Source of the DNA: Flavobacteriales bacterium
GTDB taxonomy: Bacteria; Bacteroidota; Bacteroidia; Flavobacteriales_D; CAJJDF01
Length of the DNA: 64,000 nucleotides
Direction of reading: 5' to 3'
NCBI GenBank assembly: GCA_020630395.1
Contig: JAHDBM010000001.1
Coordinates: 5,511 to 69,510, forward strand
Shown here: piece after piece, positions 1 to 6,707 of the stretch
How positions within the stretch are numbered: the stretch's first letter is position 1
Layout of the letters: the number at the start of each line of letters is the position of its first letter
The notes under the pieces: model-generated
Databases searched by the model: none
Told to the model about the DNA's origin: nothing
Seen by the model: only the letters and a program-made list of their open reading frames with translations
Program-made: the position numbers and the translations under genes

Positions 1-345
1 ATAATAAAGCGTTTTCTCATGAGGCAATAGTTCTTTGCTCGGTTTTCCTTTAGCTTCTGGGATTCGCCCTTTAATTGGGTGTGAAACCCTAATAGTTGAA
101 GGTGTATGAAATCCAAATACATGAGATACTACATCTTCTACTGTAGATATAAAATCTGTATGTGAAATGGTCGGCTCATTATCTTTTGCAAATACTGGAA
201 TGATATGATGGTTTTGTAATTCATCAAATCCAACCAGTTTTGTATTTGCTTTTATAAAATGCTTGTTATTTGGATTCTCTTGTACTGTATCATCAAAGGG
301 AGCTTCACTTTCAAATACACTTTGTTCAATGCTTAAACGTTCCAT
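1..345 (-). CDS. DUF3871 family protein, N-terminal part (truncated by window edge; not in ORF track)
   Basis: Manual translation from ATG at 345: MERLSIEQ...HIIPVFAKDNEPTISHTDFI...IRVSHPIKGRIPEAKGKPSKELLPHEKTLYY. The IPVFxKDNE and RVSHxIKGRIPEA motifs match DUF3871 as I recall it. Start overlaps the end of the ATPase gene. Confidence 0.8.
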   Translation of the reverse strand, partial: MERLSIEQSVFESEAPFDDTVQENPNNKHFIKANTKLVGFDELQNHHIIPVFAKDNEPTISHTDFISTVEDVVSHVFGFHTPSTIRVSHPIKGRIPEAKGKPSKELLPHEKTLYY

Positions 346-1201
346 TTTGACTAAATTTTGTTGGTTCAACTTGTTTAACTTCTTGCTTATCGAGTTCTTC
401 TAGTTTTAGTAAGAAATCATCATGTAATCGCTTCTGTAAACTAGGATGAGATTTGTAAATAGCTTTTAATTCTTCATTGCTTTCTGCTGATTTAATGAGA
501 GCTTTTACTTCATCTGTTTTTACATCCGAAGAACACCAAGCTAATAATCTCTCGCCTGTTTTAGGAGTGATGACAAACTCTGGCTTATTCATAAATAATC
601 CTGTTCTGTCTTTACTCACTTTTACTAAATGATTGTCATTGATAAGCTCAAAGTTTACACTTAATTCATATTCAAATCCTTCACGTGTAATTTCCTTCGT
701 ACCATGTTTTACTACTTTGGATTTACCGTTTTGATCTTGATCAAGTGAATAATCAACTTTTCTTCTTACTGTAGTAATCACATGACACTTGGATTGAAGT
801 ATTTTGTCAATAAAGGCTTGATGCCTTGGTGTTACTTTTGCCCAATCCTGAAATCTTCCTCCAAGTTTCTCTTGGATCTCTAAACACCCTCCTTTTCCAG
901 TCCATTCGTGCGTGATTGAATCAATGATAATAACTTCTATGTCATTTTGTTCACATAATTCAATTGCTTCGATATAACGTTCTGGAGAGTATGGTTTTTC
1001 AAGATTTAAGACTTTGTAATTTCCTAAATCTGCATATAAACATCCACTTCCATTTTCAGTATCAATAATAGCTACTTTACTATAGTCTCCTGTGATCCCA
1101 TAGGCAAGTAATAGAGCTGAATAAGTTTTGCCGAATCCACTTGCTCCGGAGATTCCAATTCGAAGCTTTACAGCTTCTCTTTTTGCTTCTTGTAATTGCA
1201 T
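326..1201 (-). CDS. AAA-family (AAA_24/Sak4-like) phage-type ATPase
   Basis: Walker A GASGFGKT, IIDTENGS, Walker B IIIDSITHEW, REGFEYE. Confidence 0.8.
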   Translation of the reverse strand: MQLQEAKREAVKLRIGISGASGFGKTYSALLLAYGITGDYSKVAIIDTENGSGCLYADLGNYKVLNLEKPYSPERYIEAIELCEQNDIEVIIIDSITHEWTGKGGCLEIQEKLGGRFQDWAKVTPRHQAFIDKILQSKCHVITTVRRKVDYSLDQDQNGKSKVVKHGTKEITREGFEYELSVNFELINDNHLVKVSKDRTGLFMNKPEFVITPKTGERLLAWCSSDVKTDEVKALIKSAESNEELKAIYKSHPSLQKRLHDDFLLKLEELDKQEVKQVEPTKFSQNGTFKH

Positions 1202-1249
1202 AATATTTTAATTTTTGGTTTGTAATTAGTTCTTTGTTTCTTTAATAGC

Positions 1250-1276
1250 AAAAAGGAGGCATTCATTACCTCCTTT
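1250..1276 (-). terminator. Intrinsic terminator or attenuator-like hairpin between the 114-aa gene and the ATPase gene
   Basis: AAAGGAGG(1252-1259)/CCTCCTTT(1269-1276), with a U5 tail on the - strand. Confidence 0.55.
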
Positions 1277-1301
1277 CTATACTATAGATCGTAAACCTCG
1301 C

Positions 1302-1646
1302 CTAAGCAAGGACAACAGGTTCAAGAATTGTTTCTTCAATTGAATCTGCTTCGTTTACATAAGTGTAGGTGAAGTTGAGGGCTATCATCTCCCCAGTTTT
1401 CTTATCTACAATTTCATATTCTTCACAAGGAACTTTGTCAATACGACCTGGTAGTTCTTCTCCAACTAATCCTCTACATATGGATTCTTCAAATGATGCT
1501 GGAATAGAACACTTTTTAATAGTCGCATATTGACGATTTGTATTCTTACTTGTGACAATTTCAACTCCACCACTAATGGTTAGTGTGCAGAATTGTTCTC
1601 CTGTGTCCTGATTTATTCGGACTTTGTAATCAATAATTTTTACCAT
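1302..1646 (-). CDS. Hypothetical protein of Bacteroidota islands, possibly an OB-fold ssDNA-binding protein
   Basis: 114 aa, beta-strand-like pattern, acidic C-terminal tail, AT-rich translation initiation region. The SSB function is inference. Confidence 0.65.
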   Translation of the reverse strand: MVKIIDYKVRINQDTGEQFCTLTISGGVEIVTSKNTNRQYATIKKCSIPASFEESICRGLVGEELPGRIDKVPCEEYEIVDKKTGEMIALNFTYTYVNEADSIEETILEPVVLA

Positions 1647-1682
1647 GATTTTAAATTTTTAATGGTTAGACATACAGTTTAT

Positions 1683-1810
1683 GGCGGGGGAGTTTCCCCA
1701 AACCAAAGTCAAGATGGGGTCTGTGAATGAGGTGGATTGAGTTCTTTTCATCTCTAGTAAAAAGACATGGGGGGTATGAACCAATTTTTATGAAACACGG
1801 GGGGTGTTTA
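1683..1810. other. G-tract and hairpin cis element
   Basis: GGGGA-GTT-TCCCC hairpin (1687-1699), TGGGG (1715-1719), ACAYGGGGGGTRT twice (G6 at 1769-1774 and 1799-1804), AAACAC-G5-GTGTTT hairpin (1793-1809). Confidence 0.55.
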
Positions 1811-1999
1811 TATAGTAGTGAAGTAATGATTTGCTCCTACTATAGAGTTAAGGATTTTGTCATCATGAATATTTATGAAATTTTATAGATCCTCAATGAA
1901 AAATTATGGATTCCCAAAAAAATATTATTGGCATACTTTTATGGAGAAAAAAGCTATAGCGATATAATAAAAAATATGCTGGTTATCAGTACTTAACAC

Positions 2000-2030
2000 T
2001 TGACAAGGAGGGCGTTTTTTCGTATATTTG
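2000..2030 (+). promoter_or_regulatory. Bacteroidota primary-sigma promoter
   Basis: TTGACA at 2000-2005 (-33 TTG) and TATATTTG at 2023-2030 (-7 TAnnTTTG). TTG to TAnnTTTG spacing is 20 nt. No protein gene follows on this strand. Confidence 0.75.
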
Positions 2031-2035
2031 TATAA

Positions 2036-2575
2036 TGAATTTTGTTGATTTTTACTCGCAAATTCAGGACATACATATCTAACGAAGTTGACTTACCCTG
2101 TCGCTTGTAATTTGAGGGGAAACCTTGGTTATAACAAACTCTTCAGGGAACGAAAACATAAACTAGTAAGGAAGAATAAGGTTGACTACCGCCCGATATA
2201 GCAAATGCTTAAACCATAACTTATCAAAGGTTTAAGGGGTGATTAAACTGAAACAGTAGTTCTTCGAGATAAGTAAATACAATTCTAAGGTGTAAACTAT
2301 GAATTTATTTATAACCATTGCCGAATATTCCTTAATCGTGAGAAAGTAATGCTAAAGCCCTTAGCGAAGCTGTTTCTTTTTTTGAAAAAATGACTCGGTT
2401 CTTAACCTTGCTTCGCAAAACATTAAATAAGTTTGGATTTTTAGAAATGGAATGATGGGTTTGAAAAAGGTAATGTGAAAACAGATTATGAGTTAATAAT
2501 TTGCGAGGCACAAGTCATGCAATTTAAGTAAGTCGATTGTTGCTAAAAAATAATTGTAAAATGTTCGATATGTCT
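2036..2575 (+). ncRNA. Candidate large structured non-coding RNA (family not recognised)
   Basis: Follows the promoter. Long-range stems 2073-2079/2567-2573 and 2086-2096/2528-2538. GNRA loops at 2119, 2292, 2338 and 2477. Internal stems 2208-2215/2229-2236 and 2364-2370/2410-2416. No ORF of 60 aa or more. Ends approximate. Confidence 0.65.
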
Positions 2576-2610
2576 ATTAATATTAATCGAATAGAATTGT
2601 AGTAAATTAA

Positions 2611-5163
2611 TTAGTAATATTTATATGTAGAAAAAGATTTTGGTTTTATCTTATAAAGCGTTTCATTCTTTCTTGAAACGGAAATCATATTGCCTTTAAA
2701 GTGCATTCCTAATTTTTTTGTGATCTTTCTTTTCGTTTCCACAGTGAATTTCCCCAAAGCCTTTTTTTCTTTTAAATACTTGATTAAGTTTTTATAATTC
2801 CTATTAATAAAAATAAGGTTTCCATGTTTGTACAAATCATCTGATTTTGATAGATCAATGTTCAAAAGAATTGATTTTTCACATAAAGAATCAGAGATTT
2901 TTTTAGGGTCAATGATTCCGTTAATATCAGTCATACTTTTTAATTCTTTATTGAACTGTTTTTTTACTTCATTAGCTAAGTTGTAGGTTTTCTTTAATCG
3001 GTCTGGTAAGGTTTTTCTATATCTGATACAATTGAGCATATAGGAAGCTTCAAATTCAGTATAGGAGAGATCTACTTTAGCTTTTTTTTGTAGTAACGTT
3101 TTTATAATATAAAATTTTACTGGTTTTGGTATTTGTTTAATACTAGAGTATCTGGTTTTGTTGTATGTTAAATAGACTTTTTTGACTTCTTGTTCTTTGT
3201 CCTTAAGCTTGATGGAAGCTTTTTTTAGAGATTTTTCTACAAATTGATATAACTCATTTACACTTTTTCTTTTGACATATGAGCCTATTTGTATATGGTA
3301 TAAAAACTGCGAGAGTTTTTTTTCATAATTATCAGTAGTTAATTTCAAGAAATAATAGTCTTCTTTATACTTTGTTATGCTAGCAAGATTACAATTGGTA
3401 AATTGATTATGGTAAGCTGCATATAGAACATATGGCATTACATTTTTTCCATAACTCTCATATTTTACAACAAATACTCGATCACTTTCTTTAAAAATAT
3501 ATTCTGGCTGACGAGGAAACGCTTTGTTGATTAAATAGAATTCCTTTCTTAATTCAATTGCTCTTTCTTGGTCAGATAGTTTTCCAATTCGGTTTAATTC
3601 TTTTTCGCTTGATAATCCGCTTGCAATGTATTGATCTACACTGGATGAAGATGATTCAACATCTTTATATTCCGTAGTTATGATATTGTCTTTTGCCTTT
3701 AAGGATTTATATTTCAAGTTGTATAACTCATATCTTTCTTTATCCACTTCACTGTATACTCTTCTATATTCTTCCCCAATTTTTGTTGCTTGTTTAGAAA
3801 GTGATAAAAAAAGTTTTGGTTCTGCATCTGCAATCAAAAAATTGGGTAGGTTAGTCGTATAGTCTTTTTCCTCTTCAATATCCTCATGTTTTCTTAAGTA
3901 GATCTTTTGGGGTGGAGAAATAAAATAAATGTCTCCTTGAACCCTCAAACGCCCTATAGCTTGAATTATAGAGGTTATACCTTGCGAAAAAATCCCAAGT
4001 TTTGCTGATTTGGAATCATCTAAGCTACTAGGAGCAATAATCACTAAAATGGAATTTTCGGTTGTAATGTCAATTCCAGTATAAAATGTCGTTCCAACGT
4101 TTAATTTGTTTTCATCAAAGACTTCTTTGTTATTGCCTACTAACAACTGAATTTCTGTTCCATTTATACTTAGTTTAGCTAGTGTTTCGTCACTGAATAT
4201 TTCTTTATTTTTTACTATAGATTTTGATAGTTCGCTATATGGACTAATAATATGAAGTGGACGACTTTCATTTAAAGATTTTTCTACTAAAACTTTAAGA
4301 GGGTTTTCCAAAGGATCGAATCTTCCAGAAGAATAAAAACTATGGGTATATACCAAATGTAGGTTTGCGTTTTGTCTCTTTTCTCTATCGGTATAGTATA
4401 TTTTGGCTTTGTTATCTGTTAGTTCGGTTATGAACTGAGTCGCTATAATAGAGGCTTCGGAGAAAGTAGCAGATAAAATATAAGCTCTTTCAATAAGTTC
4501 TGACCATCTTGAGAGGTAATGATAGTAATAGTCTTTAAAGTGGTCAGTTATCACGTGAAATTCGTCAAAAACCATTACCACTTTCTTATTTTCTTTCTTT
4601 GCCTTTTGGATTAATTCCGTGGAAAATACCTTTTTCGTGGTAGATAACTCGACACTATCTTCGCCTGGATTATTAAATAAGGTATTAACTGTGGTTATGT
4701 ATACATTTTCTCCTTGTTTAATTTTCTCTTTCATCACCTTTATCCGCTTAGAAACATCTTTTTCTTCATTGGCATCTTCATAGTGAACAACTGATATCCC
4801 TCTTTCCATCAAATTGGATTGATCTTTGTTTGTAAGCTTTTTATATGGGCTAACCATGATAATGATGTATTTGTTTGTTTGATTCAAATATTCGATCATA
4901 TCATATATGGCTGTCGTCTTTCCTTGACCTACTCCAATGTTAACTATTGTTGTTAGATTTTGGTAGGGATAGTTTATTACATCATTTTTGAACTTGTTTA
5001 ATAGGTCTTTAGTGACATAACCATCCTTATTCGACTTGACTTCCTCCTTCTTAATTTCAGTGCCGCAGATTGCAGAAATGATGTCCTCTCGAACTTGTTT
5101 ATAATCAATCTTCTCATTTACCTTGTGATTTTCTTCAATAGTATAAGTCTCACTAAGAATCAT
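2611..5163 (-). CDS. SF2 (DExH) helicase-like protein with a large uncharacterised basic C-terminal half
   Basis: Motifs I GVGQGKTT, Ia VSPYKKL, II FDEFH, III LSAT, V TTFYTGIDI, VI IIQAIGRLR. Confidence 0.8.
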   Translation of the reverse strand: MILSETYTIEENHKVNEKIDYKQVREDIISAICGTEIKKEEVKSNKDGYVTKDLLNKFKNDVINYPYQNLTTIVNIGVGQGKTTAIYDMIEYLNQTNKYIIIMVSPYKKLTNKDQSNLMERGISVVHYEDANEEKDVSKRIKVMKEKIKQGENVYITTVNTLFNNPGEDSVELSTTKKVFSTELIQKAKKENKKVVMVFDEFHVITDHFKDYYYHYLSRWSELIERAYILSATFSEASIIATQFITELTDNKAKIYYTDREKRQNANLHLVYTHSFYSSGRFDPLENPLKVLVEKSLNESRPLHIISPYSELSKSIVKNKEIFSDETLAKLSINGTEIQLLVGNNKEVFDENKLNVGTTFYTGIDITTENSILVIIAPSSLDDSKSAKLGIFSQGITSIIQAIGRLRVQGDIYFISPPQKIYLRKHEDIEEEKDYTTNLPNFLIADAEPKLFLSLSKQATKIGEEYRRVYSEVDKERYELYNLKYKSLKAKDNIITTEYKDVESSSSSVDQYIASGLSSEKELNRIGKLSDQERAIELRKEFYLINKAFPRQPEYIFKESDRVFVVKYESYGKNVMPYVLYAAYHNQFTNCNLASITKYKEDYYFLKLTTDNYEKKLSQFLYHIQIGSYVKRKSVNELYQFVEKSLKKASIKLKDKEQEVKKVYLTYNKTRYSSIKQIPKPVKFYIIKTLLQKKAKVDLSYTEFEASYMLNCIRYRKTLPDRLKKTYNLANEVKKQFNKELKSMTDINGIIDPKKISDSLCEKSILLNIDLSKSDDLYKHGNLIFINRNYKNLIKYLKEKKALGKFTVETKRKITKKLGMHFKGNMISVSRKNETLYKIKPKSFSTYKYY

Positions 5164-5193: not shown

Positions 5194-6420
5194 TTAGAGA
5201 GAATTTAGGATTTTTTCATTGGCTTCATCTAGTTTTTCGTTGGTAAAACTGGCAAGATAGGTTTCAGTAATTTTCACATTGGAATGCCCCATAGAGTCTT
5301 TTATAATATTGATAGAAAGTCCTCCATTCTTGGCAAGCATGGCATATGAATGCCTCATGTAATACGAAGTGAAGTTATGATCAATACTTGTTTTTTCTCT
5401 CACTAGTCTTAGTTTTCGATTAAATTTCTTTAGTCTGTCGGTATAGTATTTGATATCAGAATCACTTTTAAATATTGGGAATAAATATTCTTCTGTTTGA
5501 CCTTTGATATTTGCATGTTTTCTGAGAATTAATAGCATTTCTTCAGTTACCTTAATCGAGAACTTCCCTTTGGTTTTGCTTCTAGTATAGTTGATTCTAT
5601 AATGTTGTGAGTTTTCTTTTGCTTCTATTAGAACCAAGTTTTCACATTTTAGTTTGCAGATGTCGATGTAATTCATTCCTCTAGCATAAATTCCAAACAT
5701 GAAAATATCTCTAACGAACTCTATTTTTGGTTTGTCACTTAAGTCAAGGGTTTTAATTTCTATTAGTTGGTCTTTTGTTAGAAATCTCTTTTGGGTAGAT
5801 TCTGATTTGACTGTGTAGTTGATAAAAGGATGTCGTTCTGGAGATACAACTTCTTCCTTTATGGCTTTGTTATATACCGCTCTTATAGCTCTCATATAGA
5901 TACTTATTGTGTTGATTCCACAATTGGTCTTTCGCATATAGGTATCGAAGTCGTTGATCATTTTGTAGCTAAAGTCCTCTATTGGAAAATCCTTAGGTTG
6001 AAATTTCTTCAACTTATTAAATGCTCCTCTACTTACCGAAGAGGTTTTGAATGAACCCTTGTCTATATATTCTTGTAATTTGGATTCATAATACTCATAG
6101 AAGAGGGTAGAGGTAGAATCTCCTCTAACTATTCTTCTAACTTGATAGGCTAAGGTGTCTATGTTTAAGTTTTGTGCTTTTTCAAGTTCAAAAACTGCAT
6201 TCTCACATGTTGTTTGAATATCTAGCAAGTAATGTTTAAGAACTTGGTAGTGCTTGTAATGTTGTTTAGGTAAGTTTCTGTTGAAGTCCCACTTATCTTC
6301 GGGTATGGATTTCCCTGTATGTATTCTTCTTCTCTTTCTTTTATAAATTATTTGAACAATTATTGGTTTTTCATTTTGCTTTTCTTTGTCAGTTCGGAGT
6401 TTAATTTTTACTGTTACCAT
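5194..6420 (-). CDS. Tyrosine recombinase/integrase (Bacteroidota type with arm-binding and SAM-like domains)
   Basis: N-terminal arm-binding-like region (RRRIHTGKSI..KWD), RSKT, YYMRHSYA, MGHSNVKITETYL. Adjacent to att site. Confidence 0.92.
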   Translation of the reverse strand: MVTVKIKLRTDKEKQNEKPIIVQIIYKRKRRRIHTGKSIPEDKWDFNRNLPKQHYKHYQVLKHYLLDIQTTCENAVFELEKAQNLNIDTLAYQVRRIVRGDSTSTLFYEYYESKLQEYIDKGSFKTSSVSRGAFNKLKKFQPKDFPIEDFSYKMINDFDTYMRKTNCGINTISIYMRAIRAVYNKAIKEEVVSPERHPFINYTVKSESTQKRFLTKDQLIEIKTLDLSDKPKIEFVRDIFMFGIYARGMNYIDICKLKCENLVLIEAKENSQHYRINYTRSKTKGKFSIKVTEEMLLILRKHANIKGQTEEYLFPIFKSDSDIKYYTDRLKKFNRKLRLVREKTSIDHNFTSYYMRHSYAMLAKNGGLSINIIKDSMGHSNVKITETYLASFTNEKLDEANEKILNSL

Positions 6421-6583: not shown

Positions 6584-6626
6584 CCTTACAAGCAGGGGGT
6601 CACTGGTTCGAATCCAGTATCGCCCA
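6584..6626 (+). pseudogene. 3' half of tRNA-Val(TAC), the att junction of the element
   Basis: C-CTTACAA-GCAGG-GGGTC-ACTGG-TTCGAAT-CCAGT-ATCGCCC-A. Anticodon loop, T arm and acceptor 3' strand are intact, but there is no D arm or 5' anticodon-stem strand upstream. Confidence 0.9.
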
Positions 6627-6637
6627 CATAGTAATAG

Positions 6638-6672
6638 AAAGCCTTTCAAGAAATTGAGAGGCTTTTTTGTTT
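6638..6672 (+). terminator. Intrinsic terminator (original tRNA terminator, probably bidirectional)
   Basis: AAAGCCTTTCAA-GAAA-TTGAGAGGCTTT followed by a T-run. Confidence 0.8.
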
Positions 6673-6707
6673 TGGGTGGGTGAAGCATATATGAAACATT
6701 TTTTGTT

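Follow-up and report, generated by a model that had tools for sequence, protein, structure and literature searches.

CopA, RNA I and P22 sar are counter-transcribed RNAs that plasmids and phages encode. There are few large bacterial RNAs with a tertiary fold, and most that carry 11-nt receptors are ribozymes. Passages in PMC12286853 describe ROOL and GOLLD as prophage-borne, pseudoknotted and without known partners. A passage in PMC2275092 calls contacts between GNRA loops and receptors frequent in group I introns, group II introns and RNase P, and one crystal survey, as given in part of PMC3494683, counts 11-nt receptors in 4 of 78 loop-helix contacts, with none in rRNA.

The candidate RNA described here is like ROOL and GOLLD, as far as those passages characterize them, in being large, carried by a mobile element, apparently non-coding, possibly pseudoknotted and without an evident protein partner. 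It differs from them in lying in an integrative element rather than a prophage tRNA island, in a folding energy no better than that of shuffles, in matching no Rfam model and in being known here from sequence alone. Unlike group I introns, group II introns and RNase P, it has no recognizable catalytic core, has its own predicted promoter and interrupts no gene. Like CopA, RNA I and P22 sar, it has a promoter that opposes a replication/recombination operon in a mobile element; unlike them, it is five times longer, has tertiary motifs and no intrinsic terminator that could be found, and lies downstream of a helicase gene rather than over a leader. For the stretch from 2036 to about 2560, we put the probability of a real ncRNA that has a tertiary fold and belongs to no known family at roughly 0.6, and judge from its sequence motifs that a new kind of RNA, borne by the island, is likely. 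If real, it would lend itself directly to probing and cryo-EM.

The element and the predicted promoter

The window, meaning the whole stretch analyzed, is 64,000 nt of Flavobacteriales bacterium GCA_020630395.1, contig JAHDBM010000001.1 (G000:C34:5511-69510), and bare coordinates refer to it. The candidate region lies inside a mobile element about 12 kb long that has tRNA-Val(TAC) as its integration site. The intact tRNA spans the break between contigs C29 and C34, with its 5' part on contig C29. The features of the element are as follows.

G000:C34:11-112: left element end
1..369, minus: DUF3871 gene, 5' part
326..1201, minus: AAA_24 / Sak4-like ATPase
1302..1646, minus: conserved ORF of 114 aa without a Pfam family, diverging from the promoter
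1953..1960, no strand assigned: GCTATAGC, a site resembling an operator, 70 nt ahead of the -7 box
2000..2030, plus: predicted Bacteroidota sigma-A-type promoter (TTG 2000-2002, TATATTTG 2023-2030; TTG-N20-TATATTTG)
2036..2560, plus: candidate ncRNA, both ends estimated
2611..5163, minus: SF2 helicase-domain protein of 850 aa (PF00270, E 1.7e-11), convergent with the promoter
5194..6420, minus: tyrosine integrase (PF00589, PF13102, PF17293)
6584..6684, plus: duplicate of the tRNA-Val(TAC) 3' part and terminator, at the right element end (91% over 102 nt)

The minus-strand order is thus integrase, SF2 helicase, spacer, 114-aa ORF, AAA_24/Sak4-like ATPase and DUF3871, followed by cargo.

The original prediction had a promoter pointing into this region, and its TTG and TATATTTG are both there. 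Part of PMC9723704 gives TAnnTTTG as the -7 box. The pattern TTG-N19-21-TAnnTTTG has 297 sites in the candidate's own genome, 39 of them with TATATTTG, which also recurs in the leader that precedes the host 16S gene. (That rRNA leader, in G000:C61, has four tandem promoter-like repeats.) An upstream site of the kind seen at 1953-1960 accompanies just one of the 297 promoter-like sites, namely this promoter, and GCTATTAGC is found 51-62 nt upstream of the -7 box in 20 of the 47 related gaps treated below. The minus strand has no TAnnTTTG -7 box anywhere in 150-4120.

No sizeable ORF follows the promoter, as predicted; none of at least 60 aa occurs in 1647-2610. Read through stops in six frames, the candidate region has no match to Pfam or PHROG below E 0.1, and the idea of a decayed protein gene, of which this reading gave no trace, was rejected. 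A plus-strand ORF of 15 codons (2036-2083) begins at the predicted transcription start; it may encode a leaderless peptide or be there by chance.

Loops, receptor-like motif and folding energy

The structural elements discussed in this section, all on the plus strand, are these.

2055..2064, plus: 5' arm of a long-range helix, 10 bp Watson-Crick, partner 2498-2507 (pair probability 0.9; duplex -11.6 kcal/mol)
2086..2096, plus: 5' arm of the originally predicted 11-bp helix, partner 2528-2538, crossing the 2055/2507 helix
2208..2236, plus: 8-bp hairpin (pair probability 0.96)
2275..2310, plus: hairpin with an 11-nt GAAA-receptor-like internal loop (UCUAAG 2284-2289 / UAUGA 2298-2302) and a GUAA cap
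2470..2489, plus: hairpin with a GAAA cap, among the candidates for docking with the receptor
2498..2538, plus: 3' arms of both long-range helices

With 3 bp or more required to close a GNRA loop, the plus strand has 7 such hairpins versus 1.54 +/- 1.24 in shuffles (2 of 500 shuffles), a P value that is post hoc because the region was chosen for its GNRA loops; the minus strand has 1 versus 0.62. A repeat of the test gave 0 of 1000 shuffles, with none of eight control loop patterns enriched. Host RNase P scores 5 versus 0.87 in shuffles, and the neighboring spacer 1647-1999 shows no excess. Genome-wide, at least 7 GNRA hairpins occur in 29 of 48,740 windows, some of which are repetitive coding sequence or rRNA leader.

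The receptor-like loop at 2284-2302 is a motif that the original prediction missed, and was compared with the canonical 11-nt receptor string. The stems flanking it in the hairpin 2275-2310 have pair probabilities of 0.82-0.85. Features of the 11-nt receptor given in a passage of PMC2275092 are C2:G10, U3/A8, an AA platform, G6:U7 and U9. UCUAAG/UAUGA retains C2:G10, the UA handle (U3/A8), the AA platform, G6:U7 and a bulged U9, with C1:G11 changed to U:A, so that 2284-2302 has the receptor sequence, set within a helix, apart from its outer pair. Against the GAAA receptor as presented in parts of PMC2275092 and PMC3494683, the loop matches 9 of 11 positions, and several GAAA-capped hairpins are present. 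Docking of a GAAA loop into this receptor-like loop may be proposed from the motifs, with 2470-2489 or one of the further candidate loops at 2119, 2384, 2444 and 2463 as partner. Both strands of the 3.53 Mb genome hold 9 receptor-like sites at this stringency and 85 at the loosest. The motif arises in 81 of 5000 shuffles, a value likewise post hoc because the receptor was spotted by eye after many motifs. Such a motif is meaningless in DNA.

The region had been called highly structured, a description that its folding energy does not bear out. Its minimum free energy (MFE) relative to shuffles gives z of 0.35 on the plus and -0.03 on the minus strand, and trimmed versions give 0.29 and -0.05, versus -3.95, -3.36 and -2.45 for host RNase P, tmRNA and the 16S 5' end. 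Among sub-windows (29 of 100 nt, 28 of 150 nt), only 2460-2559 reached z -2.2, on the plus strand. Shuffles also reproduce the better energy of the plus strand (mean energies -109.5 on the plus versus -92.1 on the minus strand). That asymmetry is thus compositional, and G-U pairing was rejected as evidence for an RNA. The claim that GNRA loops and G-U pairs work on the plus strand only accordingly survives for the loops, whose excess is strand-specific, and fails for the G-U pairs.

All 17 of the 17 sequence stretches quoted in support of the predicted helices sit where they were placed, and every helix listed is present. As a set, however, these helices come to -90.5 kcal/mol versus an MFE of -101.0, which is 10.5 kcal/mol dearer, and the best-supported long-range helix, 2055-2064/2498-2507, is missing from them. 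The predicted 2086/2538 helix, in crossing 2055/2507, would form a possible pseudoknot. A possible second one comes from the loop 2219-2225 of the hairpin 2208-2236, which is complementary to 2268-2274. ViennaRNA cannot score pseudoknots, and this blindness may explain part of the energy shortfall. The helices 2409/2510 and 2364/2416 compete with 2055/2507 and with each other, and several candidate long helices are mutually exclusive. Long helices are in only mild excess over chance (e.g. 10 vs 4.8 +/- 2.2, and 7 vs 5.3 +/- 2.5).

RNA homologues and related helicase loci

That the original prediction could not assign this RNA to a named family agrees with the Rfam results. Rfam 15, which includes ROOL, GOLLD, OLE and raiA, has no matches in the window at the gathering threshold, and chance matches only at E<=10, the best at 18.8 bits versus a cut-off of 40.4. 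Several specific identities were rejected. For a group I intron, RF00028 has no match here and there is no interrupted gene. For a group II intron, there is no Rfam match at E<=10, and the hairpin 2470-2489 has a GAAA loop and a 2-nt bulge and, by eye, no catalytic triad. The host copy of RNase P RNA lies at G000:C12 (275 bits), with no match at the candidate. For HEARO / omegaRNA (IS200/IS605), RF02033 has 0 matches at E<=10 and the scanned element ORFs include no IscB, IsrB or TnpB family. The group II catalytic triad, group I P7 and RNase P conserved regions served as motifs for inspection by eye, by which no group II domain V, P7 or RNase P conserved region was recognized.

Searches for homologues of the RNA found no second copy in its own genome and none in 15 genomes of the same family, in 61 genomes of one sister family, or in the loci of the 114-aa gene (21 metagenome, 4 genome). 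BLAST of 400 genomes of the order and 400 of the class returned only chance matches of 20-54 nt, and a single-sequence covariance model of 2205-2354 found nothing in 79 loci and 150 genomes. The RNA was not found in the phage and plasmid collections searched, nor was the helicase. Four pattern scans of viral contigs (53, 0, 59 and 1 loci) gave nothing similar beyond the pattern itself, as judged by nhmmer, by reading and by a model, and no relative emerged when the viral scans used just the helicase, the alignment of the 114-aa ORF or the integrase. The literature search found no description of the element family or of the RNA; one paper mentions DUF3871. One preprint (bioRxiv 10.64898/2026.10.21.760802), in the part available, reports RNA candidates associated with helicases/nucleases, the named one with PhoH2; its supplements could still list this RNA.

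The helicase family has 342 representatives at E<=0.001. The closest proteins, at 55% (P0002) and 36% identity, are known here as protein only. Related loci were fetched from GTDB (55) and viral (3) sources, with helicases 25-33% identical to that of the window, and the gaps downstream of the helicase were analyzed in 47 of them, leaving aside 11 loci that ran into contig ends or, having ORFs of the same length, appeared to be near-duplicates. The candidate RNA is found in none of the 47 gaps. Twenty-two gaps instead have a -7 box facing the helicase, as in the window (18 with strict TTG spacing), together with a non-coding, conserved unit about 120 nt long; this promoter unit is absent from the other 25. 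A -7-like box occurs on the helicase strand in 13 of the 47. The loci with the unit, and those with the palindrome discussed below, are listed here.

Loci with the ~120-nt unit: L087, L089, L090, L092-L094, L096-L098, L104, L107
Loci with the ~120-nt unit, continued: L110, L111, L113, L115-L117, L119, L123, L125, L128, L134
Loci with the palindrome: most of L081-L134, L004, L006

The unit lies between the helicase stop and the AAA_24 start (e.g. L123:8518-8635, minus). It has no Rfam match, was not found in 150 genomes of the order, and shows covariation not above shuffles; RNAalifold predicts no pairs for an alignment in which the first hairpin is mis-registered. The candidate shares with this Flavobacteriales unit its slot, its orientation, its kind of promoter and an upstream GCTAT(T)AGC site; the unit differs in being shorter and having no GNRA excess. 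Between the unit and window 2150-2252 the resemblance is borderline (15 of 400 shuffles; P 0.047), and homology of the candidate to the unit, borderline by shuffles and negative by HMM and covariance model, was rejected. In a quick tree of the helicases (45 loci and P0001-P0005), the unit has a patchy spread inside a single clade; the window's helicase stands apart on a long branch of its own.

Among the gaps listed, most end in a palindrome with a TATA-rich center beside the helicase stop. The arms, of 20-30 bp and within about 100 nt of the stop, vary from locus to locus yet stay complementary, as seen by inspection. The palindrome is origin-like and possibly the site of the helicase. Window 2558-2592 was rejected as an equivalent, since the palindrome profile misses it. 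The element family (integrase, SF2 helicase, Sak4-like ATPase and DUF3871; 55 GTDB loci) would combine a helicase and an origin-like palindrome with an optional opposed promoter unit.

Competing readings and a proposed counter-transcript model

A plus-strand element RNA driven by its own promoter is the likeliest reading, because of the GNRA excess, the receptor-like motif, the lack of any Rfam match and the lack of any trace of a decayed gene. The alternative that survives best has no functional folded RNA at all, just a cargo-slot promoter firing into an AT-rich spacer with chance helices. It is unlikely, if well worth keeping in mind. In its favor are z values near 0, seen on either strand and in almost every sub-window, and the failure to find a homologue. 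In addition, of four further elements that were read and contain the 114-aa gene, two (L234, L236) have long open frames on the same side, running away from that gene. Against this, the GNRA excess and receptor-like motif are specific to the plus strand and each is unlikely by chance, and the adjacent 1647-1999, spacer of the same neighborhood, lacks the GNRA excess.

An autonomous, ornate RNA of the ROOL and GOLLD type would be an abundant cargo that folds, and perhaps multimerizes, free of protein and has no tie to the operon. Size, mobile-element setting, own promoter and possible pseudoknots would all suit such an RNA. The missing Rfam match and weak folding energy do not, and the tRNA is merely the integration site, 4 kb and 7.5 kb off, which makes this analogy improbable.

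Slightly harder still to credit is an eroding relic of a ribozyme (group I or group II intron, or RNase P-like) behind an element promoter, in which tertiary motifs have outlasted helices. The order of the two crossing helices resembles that of P2 and P4 in RNase P, and z near 0 would be explained by decay. GNRA/receptor contacts are moreover frequent in such RNAs (in the passage of PMC2275092 on them). The relic reading has to contend with the absence of any Rfam match at E<=10, a negative group I model, no catalytic core by eye, and the lack of reverse-transcriptase and endonuclease families in the scanned element ORFs. (The sole reverse-transcriptase match of the genome, G000:C129:902-1669 (L231), has an internal TGA and is unlinked to the element.)

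ColE1 RNA II, similar in length to the candidate, primes plasmid replication. By analogy, a transcript made by host RNA polymerase might prime replication of the element near the end of the helicase gene; no primase family occurs among the scanned element ORFs, and in the related loci the promoter points at the origin-like palindrome beside the helicase stop. Since the palindrome profile misses 2558-2592, the promoter unit is absent in 25 of 47 relatives and there is no long G run, a primer is very unlikely. Least probable of all is the ribonucleoprotein with the adjacent SF2 helicase put forward in the original prediction, to which the adjacent position, weak profile matches (E 0.0007-0.02) that link the helicase family with Dicer-like and Hef-type helicases, and a separate branch that makes a clade-specific RNA partner possible lend something, whereas the RNA's absence from all 47 gaps (helicases 25-33% identical) leaves an obligate partnership unsupported, the two genes are convergent and not co-transcribed, and related helicases travel with a DNA palindrome.

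For the promoter-driven, folded RNA, the role that we favor is that of an accessory counter-transcript. Transcription from the island's own promoter at 2000-2030 would yield an RNA of about 500 nt, which would fold compactly via a GAAA-loop/receptor contact and the crossing long-range helices, and which would dampen the helicase-to-recombination operon on the opposite strand. With no minus-strand TAnnTTTG in 150-4120, the downstream minus-strand genes would need read-through across the spacer, and it is against this read-through that the promoter would fire. The role was chosen because the operon is on the minus strand with no minus -7 box, and because the opposed promoter is shared with relatives when the body of the RNA is not. 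The layout, an opposed promoter facing a minus-strand operon, appears to fit a counter-transcript. The promoter unit's absence from 25 of 47 relatives speaks against this role, the -7-like box on the helicase strand in 13 of 47 gaps weakens the read-through argument, and the fact that a counter-transcript needs no tertiary fold counts against the combination. The whole model, a real folded RNA from its own promoter with an accessory counter-transcript role, is accordingly tentative, and falls short of an even chance. A bolder version, in which the candidate is a new class of about 500 nt, doubly pseudoknotted and with ribozyme-grade tertiary architecture in the form of a GAAA/11-nt receptor clamp and a helix order like that of RNase P, borne by tRNA-integrated Bacteroidota helicase elements of an undescribed family and acting as a catalytic RNA or as partner of the SF2 helicase, is improbable.

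Some further features of the element may be recorded here. The segment 6545-6583, just before the duplicated tRNA half, starts with GGGCGA like the tRNA's own 5' end and looks like a pseudo-tRNA; ARAGORN makes no call there. GGGGACAACA occurs close to both element ends (window 6459; G000:C34:118), and next to the former, at about 6450, is another copy with 3 G; the copies are candidate integrase arm sites. Upstream of the 114-aa gene, a G/C-tract hairpin motif occurs at 1684-1722 and 1765-1805, with two GGGGGGT repeats further up, and a similar motif is seen in L068, L069, L071, L079, L233, L234 and L236. The cargo includes a DUF2971 gene (L136:679-1479, on G000:C34, minus) that matches the PADLOC candidate defense model PDC-S31 (E 3.9e-41), and an 80-aa ORF (L136:276-518, minus) with no Pfam match, which looks to us like the ends of a type I restriction cluster, joined by a deletion. 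ACTATAG is found 7 times on the plus and once on the minus strand of the element, versus 1.6 expected per 12 kb (window 1077, 1279, 1837, 4212 and 6486; G000:C34:3407 and 5395), with an inverted pair at 1811-1818/1837-1844; these copies are possible protein sites.
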